A stretch of 64,000 bases of DNA from NCBI GenBank assembly GCA_964543375.1, contig CAZIYD010000001.1, positions 6,527-70,526 on the forward strand, read 5' to 3'. The notes beneath the pieces were generated by a model. That model did not search any database and was not told the DNA's origin. It was given only the letters and a program-made list of their open reading frames with translations. Below are positions 1,209 through 29,222 of the stretch, piece after piece; position 1 is the first letter of the stretch; each line of letters begins with the position of its first letter. The translations under genes and the position numbers were made by a program. Source of the stretch: an uncultured Muribaculaceae bacterium (GTDB lineage Bacteria; Bacillota_I; Bacilli_A; RF39; UBA660).

Positions 1209-3110
1209 TTAAGATAGAGTTTTTCCCATCTTAAACGCCATATCTGTTTTTGCATCTTTAGAATATGCTGGACTTTTTAGAAGTGTTTCCAAACCACCTT
1301 TTGTTTTTTCTAAAGTTTCTGTTTTTTCTGCTATGTTACTATTTACTGACATTAAGTCATTTATAGCAGTATCGTACTCTGTACTTCCAGGAGCAAAGCC
1401 TCTACTAATTACACTATCAAGTTCAGCTTGTTTTAAAATTTTCGTAGATGTTAGTGAAGATATTTCAATTTCAGTATCAAGAATAAAGTTTTTCTTTGAT
1501 GCAATTGTTTCTGAAAAGATTTTATTATTAAAGTCTTTTGCAATTTGTTGTTTGCCCGCAGTTTTAGCATAGCTTTTAAACGCTTCTTTATCAGCGGTAG
1601 TAGCACCAGGTGCTGTTGCTGCTGTTTTTAAAGTACTATAAGTTGCATCTCCAGCATAGTTGGAACTATCGTTAATAAATGTCTCTGTATAACGTTCCAT
1701 TTCTTTCATTAGGTCGGCCCCTTTTACTCTAGCATTATCATATTCTTTTTGTTTTTCCCATCTTTCTGCTTTAGCCTTTTCTCGTGCTTGATCTGCTTGT
1801 TTATAATTTACATCTTTTGGTGTTACCCTAGAACTCATAGGGCCATCTTTGGCACCTTTTTTCATACCTTCATTTGCAGACTTAAGTATATCCGAAGCAC
1901 CTCCGGTTATTGCCCCTCCAACATCGGTAACTTTTTTTAAACCTCTTGCAAATTTTCCTGGAGGTCTATCACCCATTGCCTTGTCCATTCCCCATTTTCC
2001 AAGCTGAGAAGCAACCCCTAAAGTTGCTGTTGCTGCACCAACACCAAAACCAAGTGCCCCTCCAACAATTCCTTTTATAGCTTTTGAATCTTCATTTGGC
2101 TTATATCCAAACAATTCTTCCAACATTTTTGGTGCGCTTTGCATAAAAGCTAAAATAGCTAAAATCAACAATATAGATGGTAATCCCCCTAACTCTCCAC
2201 CAAAATTTGTAACATCAATCTTAGAAAGCAAAGCTGTTAGCAAAAACAATATCGAAAGTCTTATAAACAAAGATAAATATACTTTTATTACTAACGCTAA
2301 CCATTTTGAAAAAATTCCCTTAGAAGCTGATGCCGGATCTATATAAGAAATTACAGCTATAGGGGAAACAATTTCCAAAACGAAAAGTTTCAAAGACCTT
2401 ACAGCAATTTCTACACCCATTTTTAAAAATGACATAAGCATCATTGCCCCAACTAATGTTGAAATTAACATCATATATGATATCTTATAACCAGCCTTTG
2501 TATGTGCTACCATTTGATCATTTTCATTTAAAATTCCTATATTAACACCATCTGTTTGGGATTTAAACTTTTCTATAGCTTCTCTGGATTTGTCATCACT
2601 TTGGTTTGTTTCGTTTATAAAAACAGCAAAAACAGTCCGTGCAAGTTCCGCACCCTCATTACCAGTAGATACCCCCCCATTTGCACTTTCAGAAAAAAGA
2701 CTATTTAAATAACCTTCATTTATTATTAAACTTTGCAAATTATACGTCATTCTAAAAATTGATGGCATTACAACTACCAAAACCAAAGTTATTAAGGAGT
2801 GTGTAAAAAGTTTTCCTAATCCTTTTTGTTTATCCCCTGCATAGTCTGGGTTTGCTATCATTGATATAATTGAAAAGGCAAGCTTAAACACCATGAAAAT
2901 TCCTAAAAATATATATATTTTTGAAACTATTATTGATACAATTTCTTCTTGTTGTATCGCGCCTCTAATATCTGCAAGCTCCAGAGATGCTGCATACAGT
3001 GGTTGAATCAAATTATATATTATTCCATCCAAAAACATGAATAGATATCTAAAAAGGTCTGTTACTATCCAAAATCTAAATGCAAAAATTGTGTTAATTA
3101 GAAAATCCAT
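1209..3110 (-). CDS. VirB6/TrbL-like polytopic membrane protein with a long Gly/Ala/Lys-rich hydrophilic C-terminal extension (633 aa)
   Basis: About 7 predicted transmembrane helices in the first 330 aa, then a charged coiled-coil/low-complexity tail. Own promoter (TGtTATAAT) and RBS GGAGGGG at 3111..3180. Confidence 0.4.
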   Translation of the reverse strand: MDFLINTIFAFRFWIVTDLFRYLFMFLDGIIYNLIQPLYAASLELADIRGAIQQEEIVSIIVSKIYIFLGIFMVFKLAFSIISMIANPDYAGDKQKGLGKLFTHSLITLVLVVVMPSIFRMTYNLQSLIINEGYLNSLFSESANGGVSTGNEGAELARTVFAVFINETNQSDDKSREAIEKFKSQTDGVNIGILNENDQMVAHTKAGYKISYMMLISTLVGAMMLMSFLKMGVEIAVRSLKLFVLEIVSPIAVISYIDPASASKGIFSKWLALVIKVYLSLFIRLSILFLLTALLSKIDVTNFGGELGGLPSILLILAILAFMQSAPKMLEELFGYKPNEDSKAIKGIVGGALGFGVGAATATLGVASQLGKWGMDKAMGDRPPGKFARGLKKVTDVGGAITGGASDILKSANEGMKKGAKDGPMSSRVTPKDVNYKQADQAREKAKAERWEKQKEYDNARVKGADLMKEMERYTETFINDSSNYAGDATYSTLKTAATAPGATTADKEAFKSYAKTAGKQQIAKDFNNKIFSETIASKKNFILDTEIEISSLTSTKILKQAELDSVISRGFAPGSTEYDTAINDLMSVNSNIAEKTETLEKTKGGLETLLKSPAYSKDAKTDMAFKMGKTLS

Positions 3111-3180
3111 ATATAGATAGCCCCTCCATTTACTTATTATATATATATGTTATTATAACACACTATAAATAATTATGCAT

Positions 3181-3207
3181 AAAAAAATTGTTGATTTATT
3201 CAACAAT
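3181..3207 (-). terminator. Rho-independent terminator downstream of the small pilin-like gene
   Basis: attgttga-tttat-tcaacaat hairpin. On the transcribed minus strand it is followed by a U-run (the A7 on the plus strand at 3181..3187). Confidence 0.45.
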
Positions 3208-3220
3208 CTTATATGTGTTT

Positions 3221-3574
3221 TTATCTATCGTTATCTTGACTTGGAGGTGCTTGTTCTTGAGTTCCACCGCCACCAACACTTGCAGTTCCGGCCGCATCCC
3301 AACAAATTGTCCACTCTGTTCCACCAACAATTCTAGTAAGCAACCTTATTATAATAAATAACAAGAATACCGCTACTGCTGCTCCTGCTCTTTTACCAAG
3401 CATTCCAGTTGCTGCCTTTATTGCTTTTTCATCTCCTGATGTTACTGCTTTAAGTAAATCAATTGTTCCCATTATAAGTAACACTATTGGTACAGCAATT
3501 TGTAATATTAAATATGCCAATTTAACATATCCTAATATTGTAAGTAAATCTGCATTGCTACAAACTCCGCTCAT
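3221..3574 (-). CDS. Small Ala/Gly-rich hydrophobic protein (117 aa); candidate pilin-like or VirB2-like subunit
   Basis: Two or three transmembrane helices and a Gly-rich C-terminus (GGGGTQEQAPPSQ). Local GC is noticeably higher than the surroundings. A terminator follows immediately. Confidence 0.3.
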   Translation of the reverse strand: MSGVCSNADLLTILGYVKLAYLILQIAVPIVLLIMGTIDLLKAVTSGDEKAIKAATGMLGKRAGAAVAVFLLFIIIRLLTRIVGGTEWTICWDAAGTASVGGGGTQEQAPPSQDNDR

Positions 3575-3639
3575 ATATGTTTTTCTCCTTCCATAATCTA
3601 TAAGATAATAATACTTTATTTTAATTAATTTGTCAATAA

Positions 3640-4614
3640 TTACGACTTGAAAATCCCAAGCATCTTATCTGAATTATTTTGAGCTTGTTTTGAAAAACCA
3701 AGTCTAGCAAGCAAACTATCTAAATTTCTGCTAAACATCCTATCATTTAAAGGTGGAATGCTGTAGTAAACTTTTGTTTTTGCTTCGTTCTCTAAATCAG
3801 AAACATCTTTTGTATTTAATAAACTTTTATTTAACACTATCTTTTTACCACTCATTTTACTAAACACATCGCCATGTCTTTTTATTAATTTATTAAGTTT
3901 TATAGTTGATGGTTCCATTAAATATAGAACATCGTTACAAAGTGTTTCATCACCACTTGCATTAAGATCAACAAGTATAACATCATACCTTGAACCCATT
4001 TTATTTATTTCATTAAAAAGGTCAGCATTTATAGTTGAATACATATCTCTATCGTTATAATAAATAAAATCTGTTTTATCAACCTCTATTGCCGCTACTC
4101 TGTAATTTAAAGACAATTGTTTTTTTAACATATATACTAATGATGTAGCCCCAGCATGAGCTGTTAAATTCTTTATTCCCAATATTTTAACTTTGTTTTC
4201 TATTACTTTATTTGTAACTTCTTTTGTTAAATTATCTAATTGGTGAATATGTGCAACATCCTTATATGTGTTTGTGTAATTAATTAAATGCAATATACCA
4301 TCTCTGTTTTTAGTGAAATTATAAATTCCTATAGATATCAATTTTGACAAAAACAAGGAAGATGATGCATTAGGGGTATCATCCAAAAGCAATATTACCT
4401 TATTCATATCCATATTTGCAGATAGTTTTTGCAAATTTGATAAATCTGAATAATTTTTTATTGCTGTAATGTCCAAAATCATCTTATTATAAAAAAAGTT
4501 AGAGAACATTTGTATTATTTCTTCAGATTCAAATACTCCGTTAACTTTCTTTATAATTTCAATATTCAATGAACTTATTTTATTATCAAAAAGATTTACT
4601 ACTGCTACGTTCAT
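3640..4614 (-). CDS. TadZ/CpaE-like protein: degenerate ParA/MinD-fold ATPase with a receiver-like N-domain
   Basis: KILGIKNLTAHAGATSLVYMLKKQL occupies the position of the deviant Walker A (KGGxGKT), and DVILVDLNASGDE that of the Walker B region. Lies inside the Tad-like gene set. Confidence 0.4.
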   Translation of the reverse strand: MNVAVVNLFDNKISSLNIEIIKKVNGVFESEEIIQMFSNFFYNKMILDITAIKNYSDLSNLQKLSANMDMNKVILLLDDTPNASSSLFLSKLISIGIYNFTKNRDGILHLINYTNTYKDVAHIHQLDNLTKEVTNKVIENKVKILGIKNLTAHAGATSLVYMLKKQLSLNYRVAAIEVDKTDFIYYNDRDMYSTINADLFNEINKMGSRYDVILVDLNASGDETLCNDVLYLMEPSTIKLNKLIKRHGDVFSKMSGKKIVLNKSLLNTKDVSDLENEAKTKVYYSIPPLNDRMFSRNLDSLLARLGFSKQAQNNSDKMLGIFKS

Positions 4615-4631
4615 TATTCCACCTTCTAAAT

Positions 4632-5051
4632 CTAATTTATTTTTGTTAAATCTTTTAGTACTGAAGTTTCACCACTAACTGGTGATTGCATAAATTTACC
4701 CACTATTGGGAAATCAAAAATAACATACGTTGTTACTACATAATAATACCCGCCGTTTTCAGCAACGACTTCTTTTATACAATAGTTATTAGTTTCATTT
4801 AAACATCCCGAATCCTCTTTTTTTATAGGACTGGAACCTCCATCATAATACTTTATGTTAATCAGATATTTCGCTATCGGTTCCTTTGCTTTGTCATATG
4901 TTTCATATTGTTCAAGGATGTGTACAATTTGATTCTTAGCTCTAAAGGTTGTAGCGTAGTTCATGCCAACTGCCATTATACCAATAAATATTAATATAAA
5001 TATCATTATAATTTGGAAAGTTAACGTTCCACCAATTGCTTCCTTCATCAC
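4632..5051 (-). CDS. TadE-like pseudopilin (139 aa), paralog 1
   Basis: N-terminal MKEAIGGTLTFQ followed by a hydrophobic helix, and a shared GGYYYVVTTYV motif with 5332..5751. Confidence 0.4.
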   Translation of the reverse strand: MMKEAIGGTLTFQIIMIFILIFIGIMAVGMNYATTFRAKNQIVHILEQYETYDKAKEPIAKYLINIKYYDGGSSPIKKEDSGCLNETNNYCIKEVVAENGGYYYVVTTYVIFDFPIVGKFMQSPVSGETSVLKDLTKIN

Positions 5052-5069
5052 TAATCACCCTTTCATAAA

Positions 5070-5240
5070 TTATAAAACTATATGATTTGTTACTCTTTCG
5101 CCAGTCTTTTTTACTCCGCCCCAGTCATCATTGATTTCTTTTTGTCTTCCATTCCACCATACCCAAAAAAATGCCAATACTGCGCCAACCGCAACAATTG
5201 TTATTATAGTTAAAGTTGTTTCTCCACTTGCCGCTTTCAT
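5070..5240 (-). CDS. Flp-like small pilin candidate (56 aa), absent from the ORF track
   Basis: Manual translation: MKAASGETTLTIITIVAVGAVLAFFWVWWNGRQKEINDDWGGVKKTGERVTNHIVL. Strong RBS (AGGAGGTG 5 nt upstream). Leader, then Gly, then a hydrophobic helix. Lies between the two TadE-like genes. Confidence 0.35.
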   Translation of the reverse strand: MKAASGETTLTIITIVAVGAVLAFFWVWWNGRQKEINDDWGGVKKTGERVTNHIVL

Positions 5241-5331
5241 TTGTACACCTCCTTCCTCATATGCTTATATAAATTATACATTAGCAATTTTATTTTTTCA
5301 AGTTTTATGTTACTTAGTTTACGCTTTGTTT

Positions 5332-5751
5332 TTACAAATTATTCAGTCTCCCCATTATTTGAGTTTCGCCTTTTACGGGCAAGTTGGCAATCTTTCCTAT
5401 CATTGGAAAATTTATAGTAACATACGTTGTTACTACATAATAATACCCACCCGTAGTTAATGATTTTTTTTCTATACAATAGTTTGTTGTATTATTTAAA
5501 CAAACACTGCCTCCATTTTTATTTAAATCTGTATTTTTAGAGCCTCCATAATAATTGATTTTTGACAAATATTCTTCTATGTTTTGAGAGGCATCCTCAT
5601 ATATCTCTTTATCTTGCAATATAGTTAATATTTGATTTTTAACTCTGAAAGTTACCGCATAATTTATACCCATCGCCATTAATCCCATATATATAACAAC
5701 AAATAGCATCATTAATTGAAATAAAAGTGTTCCACCAATTGCGGTTTTCAT
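5332..5751 (-). CDS. TadE-like pseudopilin (139 aa), paralog 2
   Basis: Same architecture and GGYYYVVTTYV motif as 4632..5051. Confidence 0.4.
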   Translation of the reverse strand: MKTAIGGTLLFQLMMLFVVIYMGLMAMGINYAVTFRVKNQILTILQDKEIYEDASQNIEEYLSKINYYGGSKNTDLNKNGGSVCLNNTTNYCIEKKSLTTGGYYYVVTTYVTINFPMIGKIANLPVKGETQIMGRLNNL

Positions 5752-5769
5752 TATTAATCACCCTTTCTT

Positions 5770-6561
5770 TTATATGCCCATTCCACCAAAGTTACTCATC
5801 ATAGCAAACATTAATACTGCCATTACCCCTAGACCAACTATGGTCATCATCATCATACCTTTATTTTCCATTTTATCCAAACGCTCTTTATATCTAGTAC
5901 TTCTAGATTTATTTTGTAATGATGATACACTCTTAGAGAACATTATTAATTGTTCGTGTTTATCATCTTGGGAACCAAGAGAAAGTCTATATAGTAATCT
6001 CATCATTCTAATAGAGTCAGAAACGGGATATTTTTTAGCAAAATCCATATATGGCTCTACCGTAGAGTTACCAGCATTTATTTTGGCAATTAACTCTCTT
6101 AAACCTGGTCTAAAGACTTCTGGTGAACTATCTATAGATCTGGCTATCGCAACTGGTATAGTGTAGTGTTGTGATAATATTTCTAAACCCTTTAAGAAAT
6201 ATGGTAATTGTAAGTCTATTTCGTGAAGGTGTCTTTTGTAATAAGATCTAACACTAGAATAACCCTGTTTAAATATTAAATATCCAAGTACAAAAGCAGC
6301 AATTAAATTTATAAAATTCATATTGTTAAGGAATAAGAATACAAAAACTAGTATCGCTATTATTGCGTTTCTTATTCTTTTTCCATATTCTTTATCTACA
6401 TTTACGTTTTCTCCATATTTTGAAATTAAAAAGAACTCGTAATCATCTTCCATTAATCCTTTAAAATACTCTTGGTTATCATCCATGAATTTTTTTCCAC
6501 TAATCAATTTATGACTTTGAAAAACAATAAAAAGTATAATTAATAATATAATAAATTCCAT
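5770..6561 (-). CDS. TadC-like platform protein (GspF-domain family)
   Basis: 263 aa. N-terminal, central and C-terminal transmembrane segments. Paired with the upstream TadB-like gene (4-nt overlap at 6561). Confidence 0.5.
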   Translation of the reverse strand: MEFIILLIILFIVFQSHKLISGKKFMDDNQEYFKGLMEDDYEFFLISKYGENVNVDKEYGKRIRNAIIAILVFVFLFLNNMNFINLIAAFVLGYLIFKQGYSSVRSYYKRHLHEIDLQLPYFLKGLEILSQHYTIPVAIARSIDSSPEVFRPGLRELIAKINAGNSTVEPYMDFAKKYPVSDSIRMMRLLYRLSLGSQDDKHEQLIMFSKSVSSLQNKSRSTRYKERLDKMENKGMMMMTIVGLGVMAVLMFAMMSNFGGMGI

Positions 6562-7457
6562 TACTCAGCACCCACATTCTCGTTATAATATTTTTCTCCA
6601 CTTATAAGAAAATAACTATTCGTCAACACTATAGCATGTAGTATAGCACTAACCATAATATCATCTAAAAGTTCAATATAAGAGTTTACACCTAATAAAT
6701 ATTGAACTAACATGACCATAAAATATAGTGCTACCCCAAGCTTTATAAAAGATTTGTGGAATGTTTTTCTATCAATTCTATCTCTGTAAACAGCCTCAAC
6801 TAGTGTGTCTATATCTACAAGCATAGCATCAAGGGCATCATCTGTATCTAACGATCCCTCTTTTGTTATTTGTAAAAACAATTGATGCATATTTCTAACC
6901 ATATAATAATCATATTTTGAATTCATATATGCTATAGATTCATCTATAGAGCCATTTTCATAAGATAAATCTATCATGTGTTTAACATCTGAAAGAACCG
7001 GATCTTCAAGTATCCCGGATGAGTAAACTCCCTCCAAGGCGTTTACAAAAGATTGAGTAACAGAAAATTCCATTATGGTGTTTGTAGTATAAACTTGAAT
7101 TTGTTCAAATAAATACTCACTATAAATTCTTTTGTATTTTAAATAAGCTAAATAAGGTACTACAAGTACAGCTAAAACCACATATATTATTGATACAAAT
7201 ATACTATAAAAATAAAGATAGGATATTACTGCAGCACCACCACCAAACATTATTACTTGAGAAACATACTCTTTAGTTGAATAATCAAGTCCTAAAGTTT
7301 TTACCTTTTCACTTATTTTTTTAAACGAATACGGACTTATTTTTTCATATAAATCTCCGGCTTGTTTCATTATAAATTTATAAGAGTTTTCGCCTGTGCT
7401 TTGTCTATAGAAAAGAACAAATAAAGCAATAACTATCAAAACTATAAGAACCCACAT
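6561..7457 (-). CDS. TadB-like platform protein (GspF-domain family)
   Basis: 298 aa with the same topology. Sits immediately downstream of the CpaF-like ATPase. Confidence 0.5.
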   Translation of the reverse strand: MWVLIVLIVIALFVLFYRQSTGENSYKFIMKQAGDLYEKISPYSFKKISEKVKTLGLDYSTKEYVSQVIMFGGGAAVISYLYFYSIFVSIIYVVLAVLVVPYLAYLKYKRIYSEYLFEQIQVYTTNTIMEFSVTQSFVNALEGVYSSGILEDPVLSDVKHMIDLSYENGSIDESIAYMNSKYDYYMVRNMHQLFLQITKEGSLDTDDALDAMLVDIDTLVEAVYRDRIDRKTFHKSFIKLGVALYFMVMLVQYLLGVNSYIELLDDIMVSAILHAIVLTNSYFLISGEKYYNENVGAE

Positions 7458-7471
7458 ATAACACCTTCTTT

Positions 7472-8548
7472 CTACAGAATTTCTTCTGTTTCATTATTTA
7501 TAAATATATTACTTTCTAAATTTACCCCTTGTGCCGATAAATAATTAATTAAATATTTTGTTGGATTAGACAAGAAAACTTGACCCTCCATTGTTTTTCT
7601 ATATATTGTATTGTGATTTGCAATATTATTCTCATCAACATAAAATTCACAGACTTCACAAACCTCACGAACAAATCTTTTTGTTTCTTTATCTTGATAA
7701 CCCCTTATATGAACACCAAGTTGCACATATCTATGTATTGATTTTAAAAACTGATCTATATCGATATTGGTTTCTAGTAAACTATACATACGAGATGGTA
7801 TGCTTTCTGCTTTATCAGAGTGAATTGTAGATATTATATTATGTCCTGACGATATAGAGTTACGCACAGCCATTACAGCCTCTGCAGAACGAACTTCAGA
7901 TAAAAGTATCCATCTTGGATTTTGTCTCATACAAGTAACTAAAACTTCACTATAAGAAGCTATATTATTAGTTTTCATAGAAACAATATCTCTTTCCGGA
8001 AATATTCTATCCAAATGAAGTTCTAATGTATCCTCTATTGTTATTAATTTTTCATTTTCCAAAGTATGTGATGCCAAATATTTAAGAAACTCTGTCTTAC
8101 CAGAACCAGTTTCACCACTTACTATTATATTGCAGTGTCCAGAAACACATCTAAGTAAAAAGTCATGAATTTCTTCTGTTATATACTTTTCTTCTAATAT
8201 TTTCTCTTTCTTGAGTCTAATTTTAGCAGGAGTTTTACGCATAAGCATAGCAACTCCATTTCTAGCAATAGAATCATGAATGAAATTCAAACGGAGTTCT
8301 GCACTTTCAGCATCAAGAAAAGGATGAGCCATATTAAATGTCTTGCCCATCATATTAGAACATTGAAACGCCAACTTTTCTATTATTGCATTATTAACAT
8401 CTTGAACTTCAGCTCTATATACACCCTTAGATAATGATTTTAACCATAACTGACCACTATTACTATAAGAAACGTCTGTTATATCATCGTCATCTAAAAA
8501 TCTTGCTAAAGGACCAAAGTCTACGTTATTGAACATATTATTGTCCAT
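7472..8548 (-). CDS. CpaF/TadA-type secretion ATPase (VirB11/GspE superfamily)
   Basis: Walker A IIVSGETGSGKTEFL, Walker B-like ILLSEVR, 358 aa. Confidence 0.75.
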   Translation of the reverse strand: MDNNMFNNVDFGPLARFLDDDDITDVSYSNSGQLWLKSLSKGVYRAEVQDVNNAIIEKLAFQCSNMMGKTFNMAHPFLDAESAELRLNFIHDSIARNGVAMLMRKTPAKIRLKKEKILEEKYITEEIHDFLLRCVSGHCNIIVSGETGSGKTEFLKYLASHTLENEKLITIEDTLELHLDRIFPERDIVSMKTNNIASYSEVLVTCMRQNPRWILLSEVRSAEAVMAVRNSISSGHNIISTIHSDKAESIPSRMYSLLETNIDIDQFLKSIHRYVQLGVHIRGYQDKETKRFVREVCEVCEFYVDENNIANHNTIYRKTMEGQVFLSNPTKYLINYLSAQGVNLESNIFINNETEEIL

Positions 8549-8574
8549 ATACTCATCCCCTTTTTGCTTTTATT

Positions 8575-9396
8575 TTATTCTTCCGTTGTCACATCTGGTA
8601 AATCATCTTCAGATATTAAACTGGTATTAATTTCTATAAATGTTTTAAGTTCTTGATTTCCTATTACTGGTGTTAGGTTAGCATTTGCGTCTTTATAAGA
8701 TCTTGTTGTAGGAACAGGTACCAACTCTGCTGATATCTCTCTTACATTACTTAAATATAGTGCCTTTCTTAACAATAAGTGTATTTCTTCTGGAACCGCA
8801 AATAAAAGAATACTTGGAGTTCTAGAATCTTCAGTATTTTCAAACACATGTTGACCATTACTATCCTTAACTGCTAAAATCTTAATGTCTTGAACTAACT
8901 TTCCATATAAAATTTTGCCATCAGCATCTAGTGCTTTTAAATAAATGTCTACATAATTATTAGGGAATATTGAATTACCATATGTTTTTTCAACATCCAC
9001 CGGTAAGTTAAATGCAGTAAAACCATCTCTAATGTTTATAAATGCAGAATCTGGCAATCTATCTTCTGTTATAATATTATCCTCAAAAAACAAACTACCA
9101 TATGGTATGTATGCATTATAACTAGACCATTTACCAATTATAAGATTTGGATTTGTTATTATTTTCCCTTTTATCATTGCTGGTGGAACCTTCATCAAAC
9201 CTATCTTATCTTCTGTTATTCTTTCTCTAGGTTGAATTGGTACCTTAGCAAAAGGCACATCTATTGGATTTATTGCTTGATTTACTCTAAAATTATAACC
9301 AAAGTATATTACAAGTACTCCAAGTACAACACCAAGAATAGTGACTGTGTTCTTATTTTGAAAGAACTTTTTTAATTTAAAACTTAAATTTCCCAT
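8575..9396 (-). CDS. CpaB/RcpC-like Flp pilus assembly protein
   Basis: N-terminal transmembrane segment (TVTILGVVLGVLVIYFG), a SAF-like middle region and an RcpC-like C-terminus (ILAVKDSNG...LLFAVPEE..LLLRKAL). Confidence 0.4.
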   Translation of the reverse strand: MGNLSFKLKKFFQNKNTVTILGVVLGVLVIYFGYNFRVNQAINPIDVPFAKVPIQPRERITEDKIGLMKVPPAMIKGKIITNPNLIIGKWSSYNAYIPYGSLFFEDNIITEDRLPDSAFINIRDGFTAFNLPVDVEKTYGNSIFPNNYVDIYLKALDADGKILYGKLVQDIKILAVKDSNGQHVFENTEDSRTPSILLFAVPEEIHLLLRKALYLSNVREISAELVPVPTTRSYKDANANLTPVIGNQELKTFIEINTSLISEDDLPDVTTEE

Positions 9397-10548: not shown

Positions 10549-10585
10549 AATATAAAAAAAAGAACTAATTTTTTAGTTCTTTTTC
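10549..10585 (-). terminator. Rho-independent terminator overlapping the stop of the 10573..11295 gene
   Basis: aagaactaa-tttt-ttagttctt hairpin with flanking A-run and T-run. Confidence 0.5.
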
Positions 10586-11295
10586 TTCTTGTTTGTTACT
10601 TTTTTAGGTTTTTCAGTTTTAAATATCATATATAGTCCAAATAAGAATGCAAGCACTAATGCTGATATTATACCAATCTTTGTATAGTCTCTCTTTGTTT
10701 CACTTTTAAAAGTTTCTAATTTTGTTTTTGCTTCATTAAAATCATCTAATAAGTTTTGTTTTACACTTTTTCTTACTTCTTCATTCTTTAACATTATGTC
10801 TATTTTGTTTATTGCTTTTTCTATTGCTTCAACGTTTTTTTCATCTATCTTTTTTACTTCACCTATTAAAGATTCTATTTCTCTTACTACTTCTTCTTTA
10901 TATCTAGTTTCAGTCATTGTTTTATTTTCTATCTTAACAGTAACTGTTTTAGTAATGGTTCCAGATTTAGCAGTTACTCTAAATGTAGATTCTAATTCAT
11001 TAGAGTTTTTAACTTCTAAAACAATTGTTCCCACTGATTTATTGGTTTTATCACCTGATTTTAATGTTGCTACTACTCCTTTTTGAACCCCAGATATAGT
11101 CCAGCTTATGTCTTTTACTTCAACATCATTTGGAACTAATTCATAGTCTATTTCAAGATTTCCTTCAAATGGCGCAAGTTCATAGTTGGTTAACTTAATG
11201 TCTTTTAATGTTACTTTTTCATTTATATTGTCAGAAGCAAGTGCTGACATGGTAAAAGCAAAAACCAAAGTAAGAAATAAAATTATTTTTTTCAT
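10573..11295 (-). CDS. Secreted or surface protein with a signal peptide and a C-terminal transmembrane anchor
   Basis: Likely start MKKIILFLTLVFAFTMSALA at 11295 with RBS GGGGGATT. C-terminal hydrophobic helix plus KKKKN tail. Confidence 0.5.
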   Translation of the reverse strand: MKKIILFLTLVFAFTMSALASDNINEKVTLKDIKLTNYELAPFEGNLEIDYELVPNDVEVKDISWTISGVQKGVVATLKSGDKTNKSVGTIVLEVKNSNELESTFRVTAKSGTITKTVTVKIENKTMTETRYKEEVVREIESLIGEVKKIDEKNVEAIEKAINKIDIMLKNEEVRKSVKQNLLDDFNEAKTKLETFKSETKRDYTKIGIISALVLAFLFGLYMIFKTEKPKKVTNKKKKN

Positions 11296-11377
11296 ATAAT
11301 CCCCCTGAATAAATAATACTGCACTTATTATAAGTATAAAATATAATTTGTCAATATAAAAAAGCAAAAATTGCTTT

Positions 11378-12883
11378 TTATATTTTTTTATCTAAAATTG
11401 TAAGACCGTCTAACTTTGAAAGTTCTTCTTTTGTTTTAGGAGTTATTGTAAAACCTTTACTTCCTAATTCTGCTACTAATATTTCATCATTTTCTTTTCC
11501 TACAACAAAATAGGCATGTCCAACAGAAGCACTATCACTAGGATTAAGTGGTTTTTTAAAAAATATATCTCCAGCACTTACATTAGGAATTTGTTCCTTC
11601 ATGTTGTTGCCTTGTAAGAAAGTTCCACTTAAATTTGTATTATTTTTTAATCTTAAATTTGCATTTTTCTCTCCAGTCACATCATATATTAGCATTTGTA
11701 TCCAACTTGCACTATTTGGAGCATTTTTACCTTGTTTTAAATTTGTATCTAAACCCTCCATATATAAATCATGTCTCCCAGACGAACTAAAAGGGGCTCT
11801 TAAATTATTTTCAAAGTAGAAATTAAGCGCCGAGGTCAATCCGCCCTTTACTCCTCCTGTTCTTTTTCCTTCTTCTATTGCTTCTAAGTATTGACTGTTA
11901 AGTTTTGTTTTTTCTAAATCCGATAATTGTTGATATTCTTTACTACCAACAATTAAAGCACTAGATCCATCATAGTTAGAATAATTAAGATTTGTTGCTA
12001 AACTTTGATTTTCTGCATGAGTTATTTTGGGTGTTGGTTCTATTACCGGAATATTATTTAAAGTTGTAAAACTATCTTTTGAAGTTTCTGTTGGTGATGG
12101 TGTTGGTGCTTGGGTTGGTGCTGGTGTTGGCGCTTGGGTTGGCGCTTGGGTTGGTGCTGGAGTTGGCGCTTGGGTTGGCGCTTGGGTTGGTGCTGGTGTT
12201 GGCGCTTGGGTTGGTGCTGGTGTTGGCGCTTGGGTTGGTGTTGAGGTAACATTTGGTTTAGATGTTTGTTCTGAATTTTTATCATCTAAACTAAGTTTAC
12301 CACCTCTTCCACCATACTCAAAGCCATCACTTGACAGAAAAGTATTATCAGAAATAAATTTACCACCTCTTCCGCCATATTCAAAACCACTACTTGATAG
12401 AAAGGTATTATCAGAAAGTCTAGAAAATGTTATTGATTGTATTTGTGATATTAAAGAGTCTATTTCCGCTACTAAACCATTTAATTTGTTTTTGTTAGAT
12501 TGATCTAAATCATAAGCTTGTTTTTGACGTTTATAAGTTTTTGTTTGTTCTTCTGTTGCACCTTCTCCCATTTTTTTTGGGATACTTAAATTTTTTATAC
12601 TTCCATAAACTTTATTATATTCCTCTATTTTTAATTTCAAATCCTCAATTTTTGATACCATGTTATTTAAATTTGTTTGTTCAGAAGTAATTATACTGAA
12701 TTTATTTTTTAAATCATTTATTTTTTCATCTACTACTTCTTTTACTGAACTTTCCCAATTAACATTAAAATCTAAAAAATTCAAATTTACACTCGATAGA
12801 TTTTTAGCTATATTTGTAAGTGTTTGTAAATTTGAATACTTTATTGCGTCTAAATATTTATCGTATGCTGCTTTATTATCCAT
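11378..12883 (-). CDS. T7SS-associated polymorphic protein, family 1 paralog A (501 aa)
   Basis: N-terminal ~170 aa is about 60% identical to 27793..29214 (..NWESSVKE.., IITSEQTNLNN..). Internal FLSSxGFEYGGRGGK duplicated repeat, (PTQA/PTPA)n linker, and a C-terminus with GDIFF....VGHAYFVVG (NlpC/P60-like His block, no Cys). Confidence 0.55.
   Translation of the reverse strand: MDNKAAYDKYLDAIKYSNLQTLTNIAKNLSSVNLNFLDFNVNWESSVKEVVDEKINDLKNKFSIITSEQTNLNNMVSKIEDLKLKIEEYNKVYGSIKNLSIPKKMGEGATEEQTKTYKRQKQAYDLDQSNKNKLNGLVAEIDSLISQIQSITFSRLSDNTFLSSSGFEYGGRGGKFISDNTFLSSDGFEYGGRGGKLSLDDKNSEQTSKPNVTSTPTQAPTPAPTQAPTPAPTQAPTQAPTPAPTQAPTQAPTPAPTQAPTPSPTETSKDSFTTLNNIPVIEPTPKITHAENQSLATNLNYSNYDGSSALIVGSKEYQQLSDLEKTKLNSQYLEAIEEGKRTGGVKGGLTSALNFYFENNLRAPFSSSGRHDLYMEGLDTNLKQGKNAPNSASWIQMLIYDVTGEKNANLRLKNNTNLSGTFLQGNNMKEQIPNVSAGDIFFKKPLNPSDSASVGHAYFVVGKENDEILVAELGSKGFTITPKTKEELSKLDGLTILDKKI
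12058..12285 (-). repeat. Near-perfect tandem 12/24-nt repeats encoding the (APTQ/APTP)n linker
   Basis: Repeated ggtgctggtgttggcgcttgggtt units visible directly in the sequence. Confidence 0.8.
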
Positions 12884-12917: not shown

Positions 12918-15311
12918 TTAGTCTGAAATTACAATATTAATTATCTTGTTTTTTATAATTATTACTTTTATTATACTCTTATTTTGAATATGTTTAGATA
13001 CATTAATGTTATTCTTGGCTACTTCTTCCATTTCTTCTTTACTGGAATTCAAACTCATTATTTCTTTCCCTCTTACTTTACCATTTACTTGAATAATCAT
13101 TTCGTATGTGTCTTCTTTTAATTTTGAATTATCAAATTTTGGCCAAGGAGAATATACCAATTCTTCATTAGAAAACATTTCATTTAATTCTTCTGTAATG
13201 TGAGGAGAAAATGGATTTAATAACTTTAATAAAGTCACATAATCTTTTCTAGTTATATTATCTAAATTTAAATACTCATTTGAAAGAATCATCAATTCTG
13301 ATATTGCTGTATTATATTTCATAGAATCAATATCTTCTGATACTTTTTTTATTACCTTATTTATCTTTACTTCTAAAGATGGGGTATATTCATTGCCTTC
13401 TATCACTTTATCCTTTAGGTTGTAAATTTTATCTAAAAATCTAATTATTCCTTTTATAGATTCATCATTCCAACTTGAATCTAAAGAATAATCTCCTAAA
13501 AACAATATAAACAATCTAATAGCGTCTGCTCCATAGTTTTCAACTATGCTCATAGGGTCTACTACATTACCTCTAGACTTACTCATTTTTTCGCCATCAT
13601 TACCCAATATCAATCCTTGATTTGTTCTTTTTTTATAAGGTTCTTTTGTTGGAACATAACCAATATCATATAAAAATCTGTGCCAAAATCTGGAATATAT
13701 AAGGTGTCTTGTAACGTGTTCCATTCCACCATTATACCAATCAACTTCTAACCAATATTTTAATTTTGATTTGTCTGCAAACGATTTTTCATTATTTGGG
13801 TCTAAATATCTTAGATAATACCAGGAAGATCCAGCCCATTGTGGCATTGTGTCAGTTTCTCTTTTGGCATCTTTCCCACATTTAGGACATTTACAATTTA
13901 CAAAAGATGGAATACTTGCAAGAGGGCTTTCACCGTTTTTACCAGGTTCAAAATTATCAATATCGGGAAGTGTTACTGGAAGATCTTCGTATGGAACAGG
14001 TACATGACCACAGTCTTTACAATGTATTATTGGAATTGGTTCTCCCCAATATCTTTGTCTATTAAATGCCCAATCTTTTATTTTATATTGTGTTCCTGTT
14101 TCTCCAAGATTGTTTTCTTTTATATATTCTATCATCTTATTTATAGCGTCTTCTTCGTTTAATCCATTTAAAAACTCAGAATTTATATGAATTCCGTCAC
14201 CTTCATAATAATCTTTAGATATGTCAGAACCTGATATAACTTCTATAATATCTATATTAAATTTCTTAGCAAATTCATAGTCTCTTTTGTCATGAGCTGG
14301 AACAGCCATTATAGCTCCTGTTCCATAATTCATCATTACATAGTCTGAGATATATACCGGTATTTCCTTTTTGTTTACAGGATTAATAGCGGTTATTCCT
14401 TCTATTTTTACTCCTGTTTTTTCTTTATTTATGTTTATTCTTTCAAATTCTGTCTTTTTATTAGTTAATTCTCTATATTTATTAATTTCATCTATATTAG
14501 TTATATTATCTTTGTTTTTATCTATTATTGGATGCTCAGGCGCTAAAACCATAAAAGTTACACCAAATAAAGTATCTGGTCTTGTTGTATAAACTTTTAA
14601 AATATCACCAGCAAATTTAAAAGATACATATGCACCAACACTTTTTCCAATCCAATTTTCTTGTTGAAGTCTTATGTTTTCTGGAGATTCAATTTCATCT
14701 AAGCCTTCTAATAATTTATCTGCATATTCAGTAATCTTTAAATACCATACATCTTTTTCTTTTTGAACAACTCCATTATGACATATATCACATTTTCCAC
14801 CTTGACTATCTTCATTAGATAGTACAACTTTACAACTGGGACAATAATTAACATATGTCTTATCTCTAAAAACAAGATTATTTTCAAACATCTTTAGAAA
14901 TATCCATTGAGTCCATTTATAATAAGCTTCATCTGATGTATTTATTAATCTGCTATAATCAAAGGAATATCCAATCCTTTTGATTTGAGATAAAAATTTG
15001 TTTATATTATCTTCTGTTACTTTTTTTGGATGAAGATTGTTTTTTATTGCATAGTTTTCTGTTGGAAGACCAAAAGCATCAAAACCCATAGGAAAAAGAA
15101 CATTATATCCTTCCATTCTCTTTTTTCTAGATAAAACCTCAAGTCCTGTATATGCCTTTATATGGCCAACATGTAGACCTTGCCCACTAGGATATGGAAA
15201 CTCTACTAAAAGATAATATTTTTCTTTACTAATATCCTCTGTTGTATTAAATGTTTTATTCTCTTCCCATCTTTTTTGCCACTTCTTTTCTATCTTATTA
15301 AAATTATACAT
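12918..15311 (-). CDS. leuS: Leucine--tRNA ligase
   Basis: HVGH (GHIKAYTGLE) and KMSKS motifs, zinc-finger cysteines, 797 aa. Confidence 0.95.
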   Translation of the reverse strand: MYNFNKIEKKWQKRWEENKTFNTTEDISKEKYYLLVEFPYPSGQGLHVGHIKAYTGLEVLSRKKRMEGYNVLFPMGFDAFGLPTENYAIKNNLHPKKVTEDNINKFLSQIKRIGYSFDYSRLINTSDEAYYKWTQWIFLKMFENNLVFRDKTYVNYCPSCKVVLSNEDSQGGKCDICHNGVVQKEKDVWYLKITEYADKLLEGLDEIESPENIRLQQENWIGKSVGAYVSFKFAGDILKVYTTRPDTLFGVTFMVLAPEHPIIDKNKDNITNIDEINKYRELTNKKTEFERININKEKTGVKIEGITAINPVNKKEIPVYISDYVMMNYGTGAIMAVPAHDKRDYEFAKKFNIDIIEVISGSDISKDYYEGDGIHINSEFLNGLNEEDAINKMIEYIKENNLGETGTQYKIKDWAFNRQRYWGEPIPIIHCKDCGHVPVPYEDLPVTLPDIDNFEPGKNGESPLASIPSFVNCKCPKCGKDAKRETDTMPQWAGSSWYYLRYLDPNNEKSFADKSKLKYWLEVDWYNGGMEHVTRHLIYSRFWHRFLYDIGYVPTKEPYKKRTNQGLILGNDGEKMSKSRGNVVDPMSIVENYGADAIRLFILFLGDYSLDSSWNDESIKGIIRFLDKIYNLKDKVIEGNEYTPSLEVKINKVIKKVSEDIDSMKYNTAISELMILSNEYLNLDNITRKDYVTLLKLLNPFSPHITEELNEMFSNEELVYSPWPKFDNSKLKEDTYEMIIQVNGKVRGKEIMSLNSSKEEMEEVAKNNINVSKHIQNKSIIKVIIIKNKIINIVISD

Positions 15312-15321
15312 AACTCCTCCT

Positions 15322-15570
15322 TATAAAAAAACACTATAAATCTAAGGACGATTATTCGCGGTACCACCTTAGTTCATAGTGTTCTATGCTCTCTTTATTA
15401 TAACGGAATAACCGGTTAAACTCCAAAGTAAGTTCATAATATCTATATATTAGTTTTCACCAAACACTAACTCTCTAAAATATAAAATATTTACTAATAC
15501 TCTTTTTCCCTGTTTAAATACATATTAATTATAATAAAAATTATAGAAATTATCAATAGAAAGATATGTT
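15322..15570 (-). promoter_or_regulatory. T-box leader upstream of leuS
   Basis: Minus-strand AAGGTGGTACCGCG (T-box consensus AGGGTGGnACCGCG) at 15357..15371, followed by the terminator stem CTAAGG...CCTTAG, a U-run, and the RBS AAGGAGG. Confidence 0.55.
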
Positions 15571-15592
15571 ATAATTTTATAGAGGTGTTTTT

Positions 15593-16276
15593 ATGAAAAA
15601 AAATATTATGCTTGGGATAACTTTATTATTAATATCTATAGTATTAATAATTATTAAAAATAATGATAACTATGTAGAGGGAAGAGTAATAGATATATCT
15701 GATAATAAAAGTATTTTAATACACAAAAATAATGAACCTATACTTATTAACTTTAAAGACAATATAAATAATATAGTGTTAAATGATATAGTAAAAGTTA
15801 AAACAGATGGTATAGTTAGAGAAAGTTTTCCCGTACAAATGACTGGAATTTCTATTAAGAAAGTAAGAAATGAATATAAAAAATTAAACGAAAATATAGA
15901 ATCCATCTCATTTAAAACTGATTATTATCAAGAAAGTCTAGTTTATAAAAACAAATTCAAAACTACAGTATTTAAAAATAAAGAAGGGTTTAAGGATTAT
16001 GTTGAAAAAAGTAGAATTGCCTTATCCGATTCAGTAGATAATATATATAAAGAATATTTTGCGGTTGTATCAACTACATCTATGAGTAGTGGTGGCATAT
16101 TATCCTTTGAGGGTTTATATCAAAAAAGTAACAATATATCTATAAATTTAAAATTAAACATAAGAGAAGTACAAACAACAGATATAGTAACCAGAGGAAA
16201 TATAATATTGGTAAGTAAAAAATATATAGATTATAATTTTGAAACATTATCCGAAACAAAAAAAGATGAACATTAA
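15593..16276 (+). CDS. Hypothetical membrane-anchored protein
   Basis: ORF track. N-terminal signal/anchor MKKNIMLGITLLLISIVLIII. Confidence 0.45.
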   Translation: MKKNIMLGITLLLISIVLIIIKNNDNYVEGRVIDISDNKSILIHKNNEPILINFKDNINNIVLNDIVKVKTDGIVRESFPVQMTGISIKKVRNEYKKLNENIESISFKTDYYQESLVYKNKFKTTVFKNKEGFKDYVEKSRIALSDSVDNIYKEYFAVVSTTSMSSGGILSFEGLYQKSNNISINLKLNIREVQTTDIVTRGNIILVSKKYIDYNFETLSETKKDEH

Positions 16277-18005: not shown

Positions 18006-19265
18006 ATGGGACAAATATTAATAAAAAAAGAAAGTTTAGTTACACTAAAGGGTACTTTAGAGACTTTAAAAGGTGAATTTAATACCTCTATAACTGATAT
18101 TAAAACAAATTTATTAAATATTTCTAATAACTGGGAAGGAAAAAAAGCAGATGAAACATTATATGTTATAGAAACTTTAAACAAAACTAATTCTGATTTA
18201 TTAATAAGAATAAATGAAAACATAGAATATATAGAAAGTGTAATATCAACTTTAGATAAAGTTGAAAGTGTTGAGGTGGAAACAAAACCGGTTGAAACCC
18301 CTTTACCAACGGCATCTCCAACCCCCACACCAACTATGGTGCCAACCGCAATTCCAACAGCAAGTCCTAGTGACACAGCAACCATAGATAATATTCCTGT
18401 TATATCTCCAACACAACCACCGCCTTCTTCTATTGATTCAAATCAAAAATTAATTAACAATATAAAAGATTTGGAAACTACGGGTAACTATAGTAGATTA
18501 ATAAATTATCAAGGAGCAAACTGGAACTTTTTTACTATGAAAGATCCCGAATGGGCTAATCTTCCATATAGCAGGGGTAATAGTCACGGGTGGAAGACAA
18601 TTGCAACAAACGGAACACATCCATTTGCCGGTATTAACGCATTAACAAACTCTGGAAATTATTATGTTGGAGATAAGAAAACAGTTATGATGGACATTGC
18701 CGCTGGATTTGGAAACATAAAGGATATAGATCCTACCACCGGAAGAACAAAACTATATACTAACGGTTTTAAGGAAATACAAAATACAGGAGGAAAAACA
18801 GGTGGATTAGGTTCAAATAGAAAATTTCACTCATTAATTAAAGATGCGGGAATTCAAACCTATGATTTAGGTTCAAATATTCAAAATGCGGCCAAAGAAT
18901 TAGAAAGTGGAAATCTAGTTCACTGTATAAGTCAAAACAATAGCAGTATAGCGCCTTCTGGACATTATATGGTAATGACAGGAATTGAAAAAGATAATAA
19001 AGGTAATACAACTGGTTTTTATTTGTTAGATAGCTTATCTCGAACTCAAGAAGACTACAATAATATGAAAAATCAAAATAAATCTCCTATATCTTCAAAT
19101 TGGTTGGGAACAATAGATGTAATTGAACCAGGATTAATAAGAATAGAAAACACCCCCGAAGCATTAGCCGGTGCAAAACTAGCGTCATTTAGATCTGGCG
19201 AAGGATTAAAGAGTAATACAAAAACGATTTTTTCTTATGAAGAATACATATCAAAAAAGAAATAA
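18006..19265 (+). CDS. WXG100-domain fusion protein, family 2 paralog 1 (419 aa): N-terminal WxG helical domain, PT-rich linker, C-terminal Cys/His putative peptidase-like domain
   Basis: NNWEGKKADE WxG motif at aa ~40. Linker PTASPTPTPTMVPTAIPTASP. C-terminal ..LVHCISQN...SGHYMVMTG. Confidence 0.55.
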   Translation: MGQILIKKESLVTLKGTLETLKGEFNTSITDIKTNLLNISNNWEGKKADETLYVIETLNKTNSDLLIRINENIEYIESVISTLDKVESVEVETKPVETPLPTASPTPTPTMVPTAIPTASPSDTATIDNIPVISPTQPPPSSIDSNQKLINNIKDLETTGNYSRLINYQGANWNFFTMKDPEWANLPYSRGNSHGWKTIATNGTHPFAGINALTNSGNYYVGDKKTVMMDIAAGFGNIKDIDPTTGRTKLYTNGFKEIQNTGGKTGGLGSNRKFHSLIKDAGIQTYDLGSNIQNAAKELESGNLVHCISQNNSSIAPSGHYMVMTGIEKDNKGNTTGFYLLDSLSRTQEDYNNMKNQNKSPISSNWLGTIDVIEPGLIRIENTPEALAGAKLASFRSGEGLKSNTKTIFSYEEYISKKK

Positions 19266-19306: not shown

Positions 19307-19380
19307 GCGGATGTAGTTCAATGGTAGAATTTCAGCCTTCCAAGCTGACTACGTGGGTTCGATTCCCATCATCCGCTCCA
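19307..19380 (+). tRNA. tRNA-Gly (anticodon UCC)
   Basis: Cloverleaf: acceptor GCGGATG/CATCCGC, anticodon stem TCAGC/GCTGA, loop CTTCCAA, T-loop TTCGATT, encoded CCA. Confidence 0.9.
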
Positions 19381-19529: not shown

Positions 19530-20696
19530 ATGGGACAAATATTAATAAAAAAAGAAAGTTTAGGTACACTAAAGAGTGATTTAGAGACTTTAAAAGGTGA
19601 ATTTAATACTTCTATAACTGATATTAAAACTAATTTATTAAATATCTCTAATAATTGGAAAGGAAAAAAGGCAGATGAAACATTATCTGTTATAGAAACT
19701 TTAAATAAAACTAATTCTGATTTGTTAATAAGAATAGATGAAAACATAGAATATATACAAGAAGTAATAACAACTATAGATAAAGTTGAAAGTGTTGAAG
19801 TGGAGGTTAAACCAAAACCAACACAAGAACCAAAGATTAATTCCAATGGGTTAGACTCTATTCCATTAGTTAATCCAGTAATTGCCAAACCACTCGTTAA
19901 TGAAAATAGTTCTCAAATAAATCCTTCAAGTTATACAACTAAATATATGGATCACGTAATTGATAATCTTAAAAATGGTATTAGTCCTTTTACAAACGAA
20001 AATATGACTGAATTATCAAAGAATTATAATCAAACAGGAACCATAAGGGATAGAGGCACAGAATTCTTTAAAGAATCAGAACAAGCATTAAAACAGTTAC
20101 AAGATAGATTAAGAAGTGAAAAAGGAAACGACGGCAAACCTCTTTGGGGAACTCCAGCAGCAACAGAAGCAATAGTGCATTTCATGTTAAAAACAGGAAT
20201 TAAAATTCCTTCATATCCTACAAAAAAACAAGATACTGTCGGGAATTATAGATATCTAGGTTTAAATACGGGTTGGTTGGATAACAATAATGGTTTGGAT
20301 TGTAATAATCTTTCTGTTTGGCTTAATATTAACTCGGGAAGAATGCCAGAGGGGAAACACTTTTATGTGCCCAATCCTAATCAAAGTTCAATAAAATTAT
20401 ACCGCCCATCTCAAATAAGTCTACCTACGGGCGGAGAAGCAGGAGATCTAGTATCAAGAGAAAATCATGTTGGAACATACGTATTTGAAGATGAAGAATA
20501 CGTATATGTTATTGAGGCAGCAAATATAAGACAAAATGCTACTCCAGGAAGTCTTATTACTATGCTTCCTAAAGATGGTAAAAGTAGAGGATTGGGACCA
20601 AATTATGTGTTATATCCTAAAGCACACTTTAATTTTATTGTAAAAGAAGACGATATTTTTCTTGTAAATAATCCAGCATCTATACCAAGACCATAA
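19530..20696 (+). CDS. WXG100-domain fusion protein, family 2 paralog 2 (388 aa), with an NlpC/P60-like C-terminal domain
   Basis: N-terminal 95 aa ~90% identical to 18006..19265 (NNWKGKKADE). C-terminal GLDCNN...(55 aa)...GDLVSRENHVGTYV matches the NlpC/P60 Cys...His spacing and motifs. Confidence 0.55.
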   Translation: MGQILIKKESLGTLKSDLETLKGEFNTSITDIKTNLLNISNNWKGKKADETLSVIETLNKTNSDLLIRIDENIEYIQEVITTIDKVESVEVEVKPKPTQEPKINSNGLDSIPLVNPVIAKPLVNENSSQINPSSYTTKYMDHVIDNLKNGISPFTNENMTELSKNYNQTGTIRDRGTEFFKESEQALKQLQDRLRSEKGNDGKPLWGTPAATEAIVHFMLKTGIKIPSYPTKKQDTVGNYRYLGLNTGWLDNNNGLDCNNLSVWLNINSGRMPEGKHFYVPNPNQSSIKLYRPSQISLPTGGEAGDLVSRENHVGTYVFEDEEYVYVIEAANIRQNATPGSLITMLPKDGKSRGLGPNYVLYPKAHFNFIVKEDDIFLVNNPASIPRP

Positions 20697-27757: not shown

Positions 27758-27792
27758 ATCACACTTCCCAACATTATATTAATATTTTTAAA

Positions 27793-29214: not shown

Positions 29215-29222
29215 GATTACTC

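Follow-up and report, generated by a model that had tools for sequence, protein, structure and literature searches.

When two proteins begin alike and end differently, which of their ends has moved? The question is raised by two open reading frames (ORFs), A and B, in a 64-kb stretch of DNA (contig CAZIYD010000001.1, 28% GC; hereafter the window, with coordinates counted over the whole stretch). ORF B belongs to the gene cluster of a type VII secretion system (T7SS), and ORF A lies 14.9 kb from ORF B, in keeping with the ~15 kb given by the first-pass annotation of this DNA. That annotation took the common start for a trafficking domain with cassette-swapped C-termini, as in polymorphic toxins that leave the cell through a T7SS. 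Comparison with orthologues turns this picture around: at the ORF A locus it is the C-terminal domain (C-domain) that is conserved and syntenic, and the N-terminal domain (N-domain) that appears to have been exchanged. As to what ORF A does, we put about even confidence in the reading that we favour, in which it would be a Sec-independent, T7SS-exported protein that targets the cell wall and whose active site, with Ser in place of Cys, is either active or dead.

The common start itself is real. BLASTP aligns aa 1-153 of ORF A with aa 1-152 of ORF B at 91/153 identities (59%, E 2e-48), which makes the domain about 153 aa long rather than the ~170 aa estimated at first, and no other significant segment follows it, confirming that the two proteins diverge completely from there on. 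At the DNA level the similarity runs from the ATG to codon 153, and upstream only a GGAG ribosome-binding site (RBS) is common to the two genes. The N-domains carry NWESSVKE (A) and NWDSSVKE (B) at aa 42-49. In ORF A, which has the RBS GGAGG 5 nt 5' of its ATG, the N-domain is followed by two copies of a 21-aa repeat (FLSSxGFEYGGRGGK at aa 161-175 and 182-196), predicted to be disordered and absent from both ORF B and the ORF A orthologues, then by a Pro/Thr-rich (PT) linker and by the C-domain with the motifs SASWIQ (from aa 391), GDIFF (aa 438) and VGHAYF (aa 454). All of these elements had been picked out in the first-pass annotation, as had the lack of Cys in ORF A; a count gives 0, and likewise 0 for ORF B. 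The PT linker is encoded by a 12/24/36-bp array (12090..12240) and has 57% GC vs 23-30% in the ORF A domains on either side.

It is the company kept by the C-domain in other genomes that tells which end has moved. An exhaustive phmmer search with aa 290-501 against 1.84 billion cluster representatives yielded only three relatives: P0001 (374 aa, 66% identical to the ORF A C-domain), P0122 (388 aa, 47%) and P0124 (a 94-aa fragment). This search supersedes one made with a C-domain alignment, which returned nothing and is unreliable, having missed P0001 too. A protein search with full-length ORF A was swamped by PT-linker matches, P0001 being the sole genuine relative there; PHROGs gave PT-linker matches only, the C-domains of A and D drew nothing useful from phages by tblastn, and an exact-sequence look-up of ORF A gave no record. 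P0001 and P0122 join an A-type C-domain and PT linker to another N-terminus, of ~90 aa with an invariant NWxG. This N-terminus is 39% identical to those of two further proteins of the window, ORFs C and D, and a profile of this second family (family 2) matches HP0062, a solved WXG100-like protein, at E 2.6e-4 and EsxB proteins weakly. The surroundings are the same throughout: with P0001 (loci L001/L002), with P0122 (L007) and with ORF A, the order is C-domain gene, gene for a 240-280-aa protein, PedC-like DUF6568 gene and SpoU methylase. The 240-aa neighbour of ORF A is 66% identical to the gene at the same position in L001 and L007, and the leucyl-tRNA synthetase beside P0001 is 81% identical to that of the window. 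Since it is the C-domain that stays conserved and in synteny and the N-terminus that differs between species, the exchanged part is the N-terminal module. Sequence comparison thus indicates an old, syntenic C-domain locus at which, in this lineage, a WXG100-like domain has been replaced by a B-type domain. Domain architecture, paralogy, synteny and rarity are all direct observations here, as are the conserved residues and the lack of Cys described below.

The N-domain of ORF A is nearest to that of the B protein in its own genome (59% identical vs 43% to the L010 orthologue of B; B and its L012 orthologue are 69% identical), which suggests that the A locus acquired its module from a B gene within this clade. 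No DNA trace of recent recombination was found in the upstream regions or in the PT-linker regions, where the longest exact match is 14 nt.

ORF B, the penultimate gene of a compact minus-strand T7SS cluster, was followed through two other genomes, L010 (found by an EssC-based scan of species-representative genomes) and L012 (found by a metagenome scan). In L010, EssC is 81% identical to that of the window and the T7SS genes stand in the same order; its ORF B orthologue (486 aa) shows 47% identity in the N-domain and ~25% collinear identity beyond. The L012 orthologue lies behind the same 102-aa gene, shows 69% N-domain identity and is clearly alignable past the N-domain; P0121 is a near-identical fragment of ORF B. 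Because the orthologues are collinear over their whole length, their C-terminal differences represent divergence and not cassette replacement. ORF B is a conserved, fast-evolving, soluble gene of the T7SS cluster, present in at least three related genomes, substrate-like and with no slot for alternative toxin cassettes.

These results bear directly on the classical polymorphic-toxin explanation, according to which A and B would carry a T7SS trafficking domain, recombine their C-terminal cassettes and each be followed by an immunity gene. Domain shuffling is clear at these loci, P0001 combining a family-2 N-domain with the C-domain of A, yet the end that varies between species is the N-domain, whereas the C-domain stays in place. 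An N-domain common to two proteins with unrelated C-termini, one of them encoded within the T7SS locus, is what such toxins look like, but a scan of genome contigs with the N-domain returned nothing, and the family comprises just two paralogues in 64 kb, to which three collections add only the collinear ORF B orthologues; the search for further paralogues that the first-pass annotation had proposed thus brought up no others. A small membrane protein does follow each gene (240 aa after A, 146 aa after B), but there are no orphan cassettes or immunity arrays, the linkers hold no common DNA that would mark recent recombination, and the 240-aa gene is 66% conserved and has a consensus promoter of its own. 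We consider the polymorphic-toxin explanation unlikely, and its central element, cassette-swapped C-termini on a trafficking domain, is not supported in the form first proposed.

If the N-domain does not deliver alternative cassettes, what is it for? It is probably an export or targeting module, possibly acting with the small helical partner of B in trans. Four considerations point this way: ORF B sits behind a WXG-like gene in the T7SS operon of three genomes (the window, L010 and L012); the N-domain occupies the place of the WXG100-like domain in the ORF A orthologues; ORFs A, B, C and D have no signal peptide, transmembrane (TM) or hydrophobic segment in a hydropathy scan; and the PT spacer and wall-enzyme-like head of ORF A make sense only outside the cell. 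PT-rich linkers are typical of extracytoplasmic proteins. The 102-aa WXG100-like protein encoded directly upstream of ORF B is the candidate co-secretion partner. The AlphaFold2 (AF2) model of the ORF A N-domain, built from a shallow alignment, has short helices in residues 3-30, a turn with Trp43 (NWES) and a hairpin of helices 45-95 and 111-149, with a predicted local distance difference test (pLDDT) score of 60-90 for residues 45-150. An hhalign comparison with the WXG-like family-2 domain places Trp43 on the Trp of WxG, weakly (E 0.031 and 0.12).

The T7SS cluster with which the N-domain would be linked has no recognisable EssA, EssB or EsaA (27317..38809) but has a 1231-aa protein with three hydrophobic segments instead; it may for that reason be a non-canonical or undescribed arrangement, of the kind that has been catalogued (PMC11217815). 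In L011 (EssC 44%), the T7SS neighbourhood is arranged in another way, looks canonical and lacks any gene with the N-domain type of A and B (family 1).

Among known systems, the closest in kind are the LXG/WXG-fused polymorphic toxins of T7SSb, of the TelA-C, EsaD and YxiD type (Zhang et al. 2012, PMC3482391; Whitney et al. 2017, PMC5555719). Like these, ORF A starts with a helical module, lacks a Sec signal and ends in an effector-type domain; it is linked genetically to an EssC-type ATPase and small WXG100-like proteins; its modules are shuffled; and a membrane protein encoded downstream is a candidate for immunity. Unlike them, its N-domain lies outside the LXG and WXG100 models, having W-x-S and no conserved LxG or WxG; there are no adjoining Lap-type partner genes; and the C-domain rather than the N-domain is the syntenic constant. 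The T7SS-substrate pattern first proposed holds for the place of ORF B in the T7SS locus and for the lack of signal peptides and TM segments, but not for the N-domain, which matches neither LXG nor WXG100. To judge from its sequence, ORF A resembles LXG/WXG-fused T7SS effectors in function, yet none of the LXG, WXG100, NlpC/P60 and CHAP models recognises it.

All four members of the C-domain family (ORF A, P0001, P0122 and P0124) lack Cys and conserve Ser391 (in NAPxSxxWxQML), Gly438-Asp439 (in GDIFF), His456 (in VGH) and Glu472 (in AEL). Overall identity is 47%, and the best-conserved part is the block around Ser391 (GLDTNL..NAPxSxxWxQML..DVTGE). In both AF2 models Ser391 stands at the N-terminus of a helix (390-403) and His456 and Glu472 on consecutive beta-strands; such a placement, if modelled correctly, implies a papain-like topology. 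In an hhalign comparison of the family with real NlpC/P60 sequences from PDB matches, including MepS and CD1368-type proteins, the GD motifs coincide, His456 falls on the catalytic His and Glu472 on the third residue of the catalytic set (E 0.092; global mode was uninformative). The best Foldseek matches of the C-domain in PDB are the CHAP lysin Ly7917 (5d74, probability 0.90, E 0.1) and the papain-like toxin 9l5u, with PlyC lower, and CHAP proteins recur in the BFVD list; the full-length ORF A model drew only generic helical and SH3-like noise. The sole Pfam match of P0124 is CHAP, in the His region (E 0.22, 12.5 bits vs a cut-off of 26). Finally, ORF D has a Cys at the position equivalent to Ser391, and its spacings are identical to those of ORF A, with 47 residues from nucleophile to GD and 16 from His to Glu. 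As several individually non-significant signals agree, we lean towards a papain-like (NlpC/P60/CHAP) C-domain as somewhat the likelier case.

DCSG and GD are the signatures of NlpC/P60 domains, and RipA and RipB have Cys-His-Glu triads (PMC12067865). Set beside the NlpC/P60 and CHAP families (PF00877, PF05257; MepS, LytE, RipA, phage CHAP lysins), ORF A has the same order of motifs at approximately the same spacing: the nucleophile at a helix N-terminus, GD(I/L)(F/V)F, GH and a third acidic residue. Its modelled topology, helix then beta-sheet, would also be theirs; its His-Glu pair recalls RipA and RipB, and the proline-rich spacer before the domain recalls RipC. It departs from them in having Ser for the catalytic Cys in every family member, a ~100-aa helical extension before the core, a GD-to-His loop 10 residues longer and no significant match to a hidden Markov model or structure. 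The NlpC/P60 resemblance with Ser for Cys proposed at first has in its favour the aligned GD, His and third-residue motifs and weak CHAP matches, but no significant statistic.

ORFs C and D place this domain in a wider context. Their WXG100-like N-domains (~95 aa, NW[EK]G) are 88% identical, and each ends in a hydrolase-like head with a single Cys. By hhalign, the LDCNN motif of ORF D falls on the DCSG motif (E 0.01); no Pfam model recognises its Cys/His domain. No same-strand immunity-like gene follows ORF C or ORF D, and a tRNA-Gly gene (19307..19380) lies between them. In L007, a 138-aa ORF directly upstream of P0122 (2021..2437, plus strand) is homologous to the C-terminal part of ORF C, so family-2 genes adjoin the A-type locus there. 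The presence of two WXG-fused hydrolase-like genes nearby supports the wall-targeting reading of ORF A. Most plausibly, ORFs A, C and D form a set of T7SS-type proteins with wall-hydrolase-like heads, used against neighbouring bacteria.

Export by the T7SS, fold, catalysis, target and immunity are what we infer, and under the favoured reading events might run as follows. ORF A would be made without a Sec signal, its B-type helical N-domain would be recognised (the 102-aa partner of B might assist in trans), and the EssC machine, encoded 15-26 kb away, would export it. The disordered 21-aa repeat and the PT spacer would let the C-domain reach peptidoglycan. With Ser391 in the nucleophile position, His456 as general base and Glu472 as third residue, the C-domain might then hydrolyse a stem-peptide amide bond outside the membrane, as a Ser-His-Glu amidase or endopeptidase; alternatively, were Ser not competent, it would only bind the wall, as a pseudoenzyme. 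ORFs C and D, WXG-fused proteins with papain-like heads, would act together with ORF A as interbacterial weapons, and the 240-aa anchored protein, which sits where a protector against an enzyme of the wall zone is expected, could have a protective or a partner role.

A number of points weigh against this picture. Neither WXG100 nor LXG is significantly similar to the family-1 N-domain in Pfam or PDB profile searches: Pfam has no family for this domain, LXG matched neither A nor B nor the N-domain on its own up to E 1-5, and the PDB profiles returned only coiled-coil and hairpin noise (the LSD1 tower, for example). ORF A has no gene for a small helical partner beside it; leuS lies upstream instead. 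No fold or family assignment of the C-domain is statistically significant: Pfam has no match for ORF A itself, the mean pLDDT of its AF2 models is 54, all Foldseek E-values are >= 0.07, and a pairwise alignment of A and D is no better than shuffles (z 0.5). Substitution by Ser usually inactivates cysteine peptidases, and RipD shows that an NlpC/P60 domain can be non-catalytic (PMC12067865). Lastly, the ORF A locus is conserved amid housekeeping genes, which suits a protein acting on its own cell no less than a weapon.

The points that concern the C-domain lead to an explanation in which this domain is non-catalytic, like RipD, or not papain-like at all, and ORF A is a surface protein for binding or adhesion, held by the 240-aa anchor. 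The absence of Cys from every family member agrees with this, as do the non-significant fold assignment and RipD (Rv1566c), whose NlpC/P60 domain has been adapted to bind peptidoglycan without catalysis (PMC12067865), and the long PT spacer and conserved membrane-anchored neighbour would suit a surface complex. However, where RipD-type pseudoenzymes have lost the whole triad, the A family has kept Ser391, His456 and Glu472, with the block around Ser391 the best conserved of all; moreover, papain-like families with a conserved Ser for Cys are rare but documented (PMC10318531). We give this explanation only a small probability.

The conserved setting, with ORF A 34 bp behind a T-box-controlled leuS, leads to another, in which ORF A is a self-directed, EssH-like wall remodeller, docked to or exported by the T7SS, that opens the cell's own wall for the T7SS, for a Tad-like pilus or for cell separation. 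In S. aureus, the T7SSb depends on a CHAP hydrolase of its own, EssH; this protein co-purifies with the machine, and its N-terminal domain is indispensable (PMC13059805). ORF A is similarly wall-hydrolase-like and tied to a T7SS, and the N-terminal domain, important for the link in both, is in its case common to a conserved T7SS-locus protein, ORF B. Yet EssH is Sec-dependent, with a signal peptide and a catalytic Cys, and its gene stands among the ess genes, whereas ORF A has neither signal peptide nor Cys and lies outside the T7SS cluster, 15 kb away. Besides, two further WXG-fused hydrolase-like proteins (C and D) bespeak an arsenal rather than one dedicated enzyme, and peptidoglycan has been lost repeatedly in this part of the tree (PMC10868615), so that the producer may itself lack a wall. 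A self-directed remodeller is, in our assessment, quite improbable.

The gene downstream of ORF A is the best candidate for an adjacent immunity gene. It starts at the ATG at 11295, not at the TTG at 11367, and its product is conserved, membrane-anchored and without a Pfam family. An AT-rich hairpin and T-run come straight after the ORF A stop and precede a perfect sigma-70 consensus (region 11327..11378, minus strand), and a strong RBS follows; on these grounds the gene looks like a transcription unit of its own with strong expression. Its product is a candidate immunity protein or surface partner of ORF A. A look-up of this neighbour found only short same-strain contigs, broken within the PT repeat.

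On the other side of ORF A, leuS (12918..15593) alone is inverted relative to L001 (4543..7231). In L001, the ORF A orthologue and leuS point away from each other across a 294-bp spacer; here, leuS is directly upstream of ORF A on the same strand, and the 34-bp gap contains nothing that resembles a terminator. Ahead of leuS stands a Leu T-box leader (15341..15519, 115 bits). Given the common strand, the short gap and the leader, ORF A may be co-transcribed with leuS under T-box control.

Each domain of ORF A represents an orphan family from one narrow, uncultured lineage, the N-domain being confined to A and the ORF B orthologues and the C-domain to four sequences of the entire collection searched; the relatives are labelled Mycoplasmatota or Bacilli. 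A bolder, joint reading would make the N-domain an undescribed class of T7SS export module, by sequence neither WXG100 nor LXG and able to take over the function of a WXG100-type domain at an orthologous locus; and the C-domain a new branch of the NlpC/P60/CHAP peptidoglycan hydrolases, Cys-free by nature and with Ser-His-Glu, delivered by an atypical T7SS of a Mycoplasmatota-like lineage that is maybe wall-less and hence could wield wall-hydrolase weapons without harming itself. As a whole we think it unlikely to hold. Should the favoured reading prove right, the locus would be a natural experiment in which one T7SS export module takes the place of another at a fixed position, and a handle on the secretion signal of a non-canonical T7SS. 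There would also be a group of effectors of the wall-hydrolase type linked to the T7SS: C39-like, Cys/His NlpC/P60-like and Cys-less. Effectors of this type are well known for type VI secretion systems (T6SS) and hardly documented for T7SS; in the 2012 catalogue, NlpC/P60 toxin heads are tied to T6SS, PVC and TcdB, not T7SS, and only Tox-PL1 is tied to WXG (PMC3482391). A papain-like domain with a conserved Ser for Cys would be useful for asking whether catalysis survives the substitution, here in a poorly known, reduced-genome Bacilli/Mycoplasmatota lineage.

Table 1. Features of the window that bear on ORFs A to D and the T7SS cluster
Feature	Coordinates	Strand	Description
ORF A	11378..12883	minus	501 aa, uninterrupted; modular: helical N-domain, two copies of 21-aa repeat, PT linker, Cys-less C-domain
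Family-1 N-domain of ORF A	12425..12883	minus	aa 1-153, all-helical
63-bp tandem duplication in ORF A, 2 copies	12292..12417	minus	2 x SDNTFLSSxGFEYGGRGGK, aa ~156-197
Pro/Thr-rich linker of ORF A	12086..12259	minus	PTQAPTPA repeats, aa ~209-266
C-domain of ORF A	11381..12016	minus	aa 290-501, orphan family
Ser391	11711..11713	minus	conserved C-domain site
Gly438-Asp439		minus	conserved C-domain site
His456	11516..11518	minus	conserved C-domain site
Glu472	11468..11470	minus	conserved C-domain site
240-aa protein	10573..11295	minus	signal peptide, extracytoplasmic domain, C-terminal TM anchor (hydropathy)
Sigma-70 consensus	11327..11354	minus	perfect 12/12 (TTGACA-16-TATAAT), between ORF A and 240-aa gene; pattern match alone
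ORF B	27793..29214	minus	473 aa, uninterrupted; N-domain aa 1-152 (28759..29214), then C-terminal region unrelated to ORF A
146-aa protein	27317..27757	minus	one N-terminal TM segment; downstream of ORF B; orthologue in L010
102-aa WXG100-like small helical protein	29223..29531	minus	directly upstream of ORF B; WXG100 E 0.066
1231-aa protein	29531..33226	minus	three hydrophobic segments; T7SS cluster
105-aa WXG100-like protein	33308..33625	minus	weak WXG100 match, E 0.0017
96-aa protein		minus	T7SS cluster, between 82-aa and 105-aa genes
YukD/EsaB-like 82-aa protein	33954..34202	minus	T7SS cluster
EssC-like ATPase	34199..38809	minus	first gene of T7SS cluster; FHA + FtsK/SpoIIIE (E 1e-39 and 1e-8)
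T7SS core without ORF B	29531..38809	minus	same gene order in L010
ORF C	18006..19265	plus	419 aa; WXG100-like N-domain, PT-rich linker, Peptidase_C39_2 (E 2.4e-5), single Cys C307
ORF D	19530..20696	plus	388 aa; WXG100-like N-domain, linker, NlpC/P60-like motifs (LDCNN...GDLV...NHVGTY...IEA), single Cys C258

Two candidates were set aside. An ORF on the plus strand (12027..12503, 158 aa, GVGAWVG repeats) is not a gene, being the antisense reading of the ORF A PT-linker repeat, and a further locus from the metagenome scan (L013) is spurious, a tetratricopeptide-repeat protein. Two contigs titled 'uncultured Muribaculaceae', L009 and L010 (CAZJQU010000046.1, CAYXGK010000007.1), have an EssC 81-89% identical to that of the window and the same Bacilli-type T7SS order; they are probably mis-binned or mislabelled.

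Within the window, the T7SS cluster (27317..38809) is wedged between smpB and rplM/rpsI, and near it an Abi_2 (abortive-infection-like) gene (25274..26206, minus strand, E 7e-40) lies between the gene for an HtrA-like protease and rpsI. A cdaA and ybbR/cdaR-like gene pair (56175..60387, minus strand) is directly followed by uvrB, with no glmM there. In Firmicutes, glmM usually completes the cdaA-cdaR operon; its absence from this locus may hint at reduced synthesis of cell-wall precursors, by itself no evidence of it. Near the start of the window is a Tad/Flp-pilus-like set (1209..9396, minus strand) with an RcpC/CpaB-like gene (8575..9396), a CpaF-type ATPase gene (7472..8548), genes for two membrane proteins (5770..7457) and, within the same stretch, one for a TrbL-like protein (1209..3110, minus strand); Tad loci adjoining T7SS variants are on record (PMC11217815).

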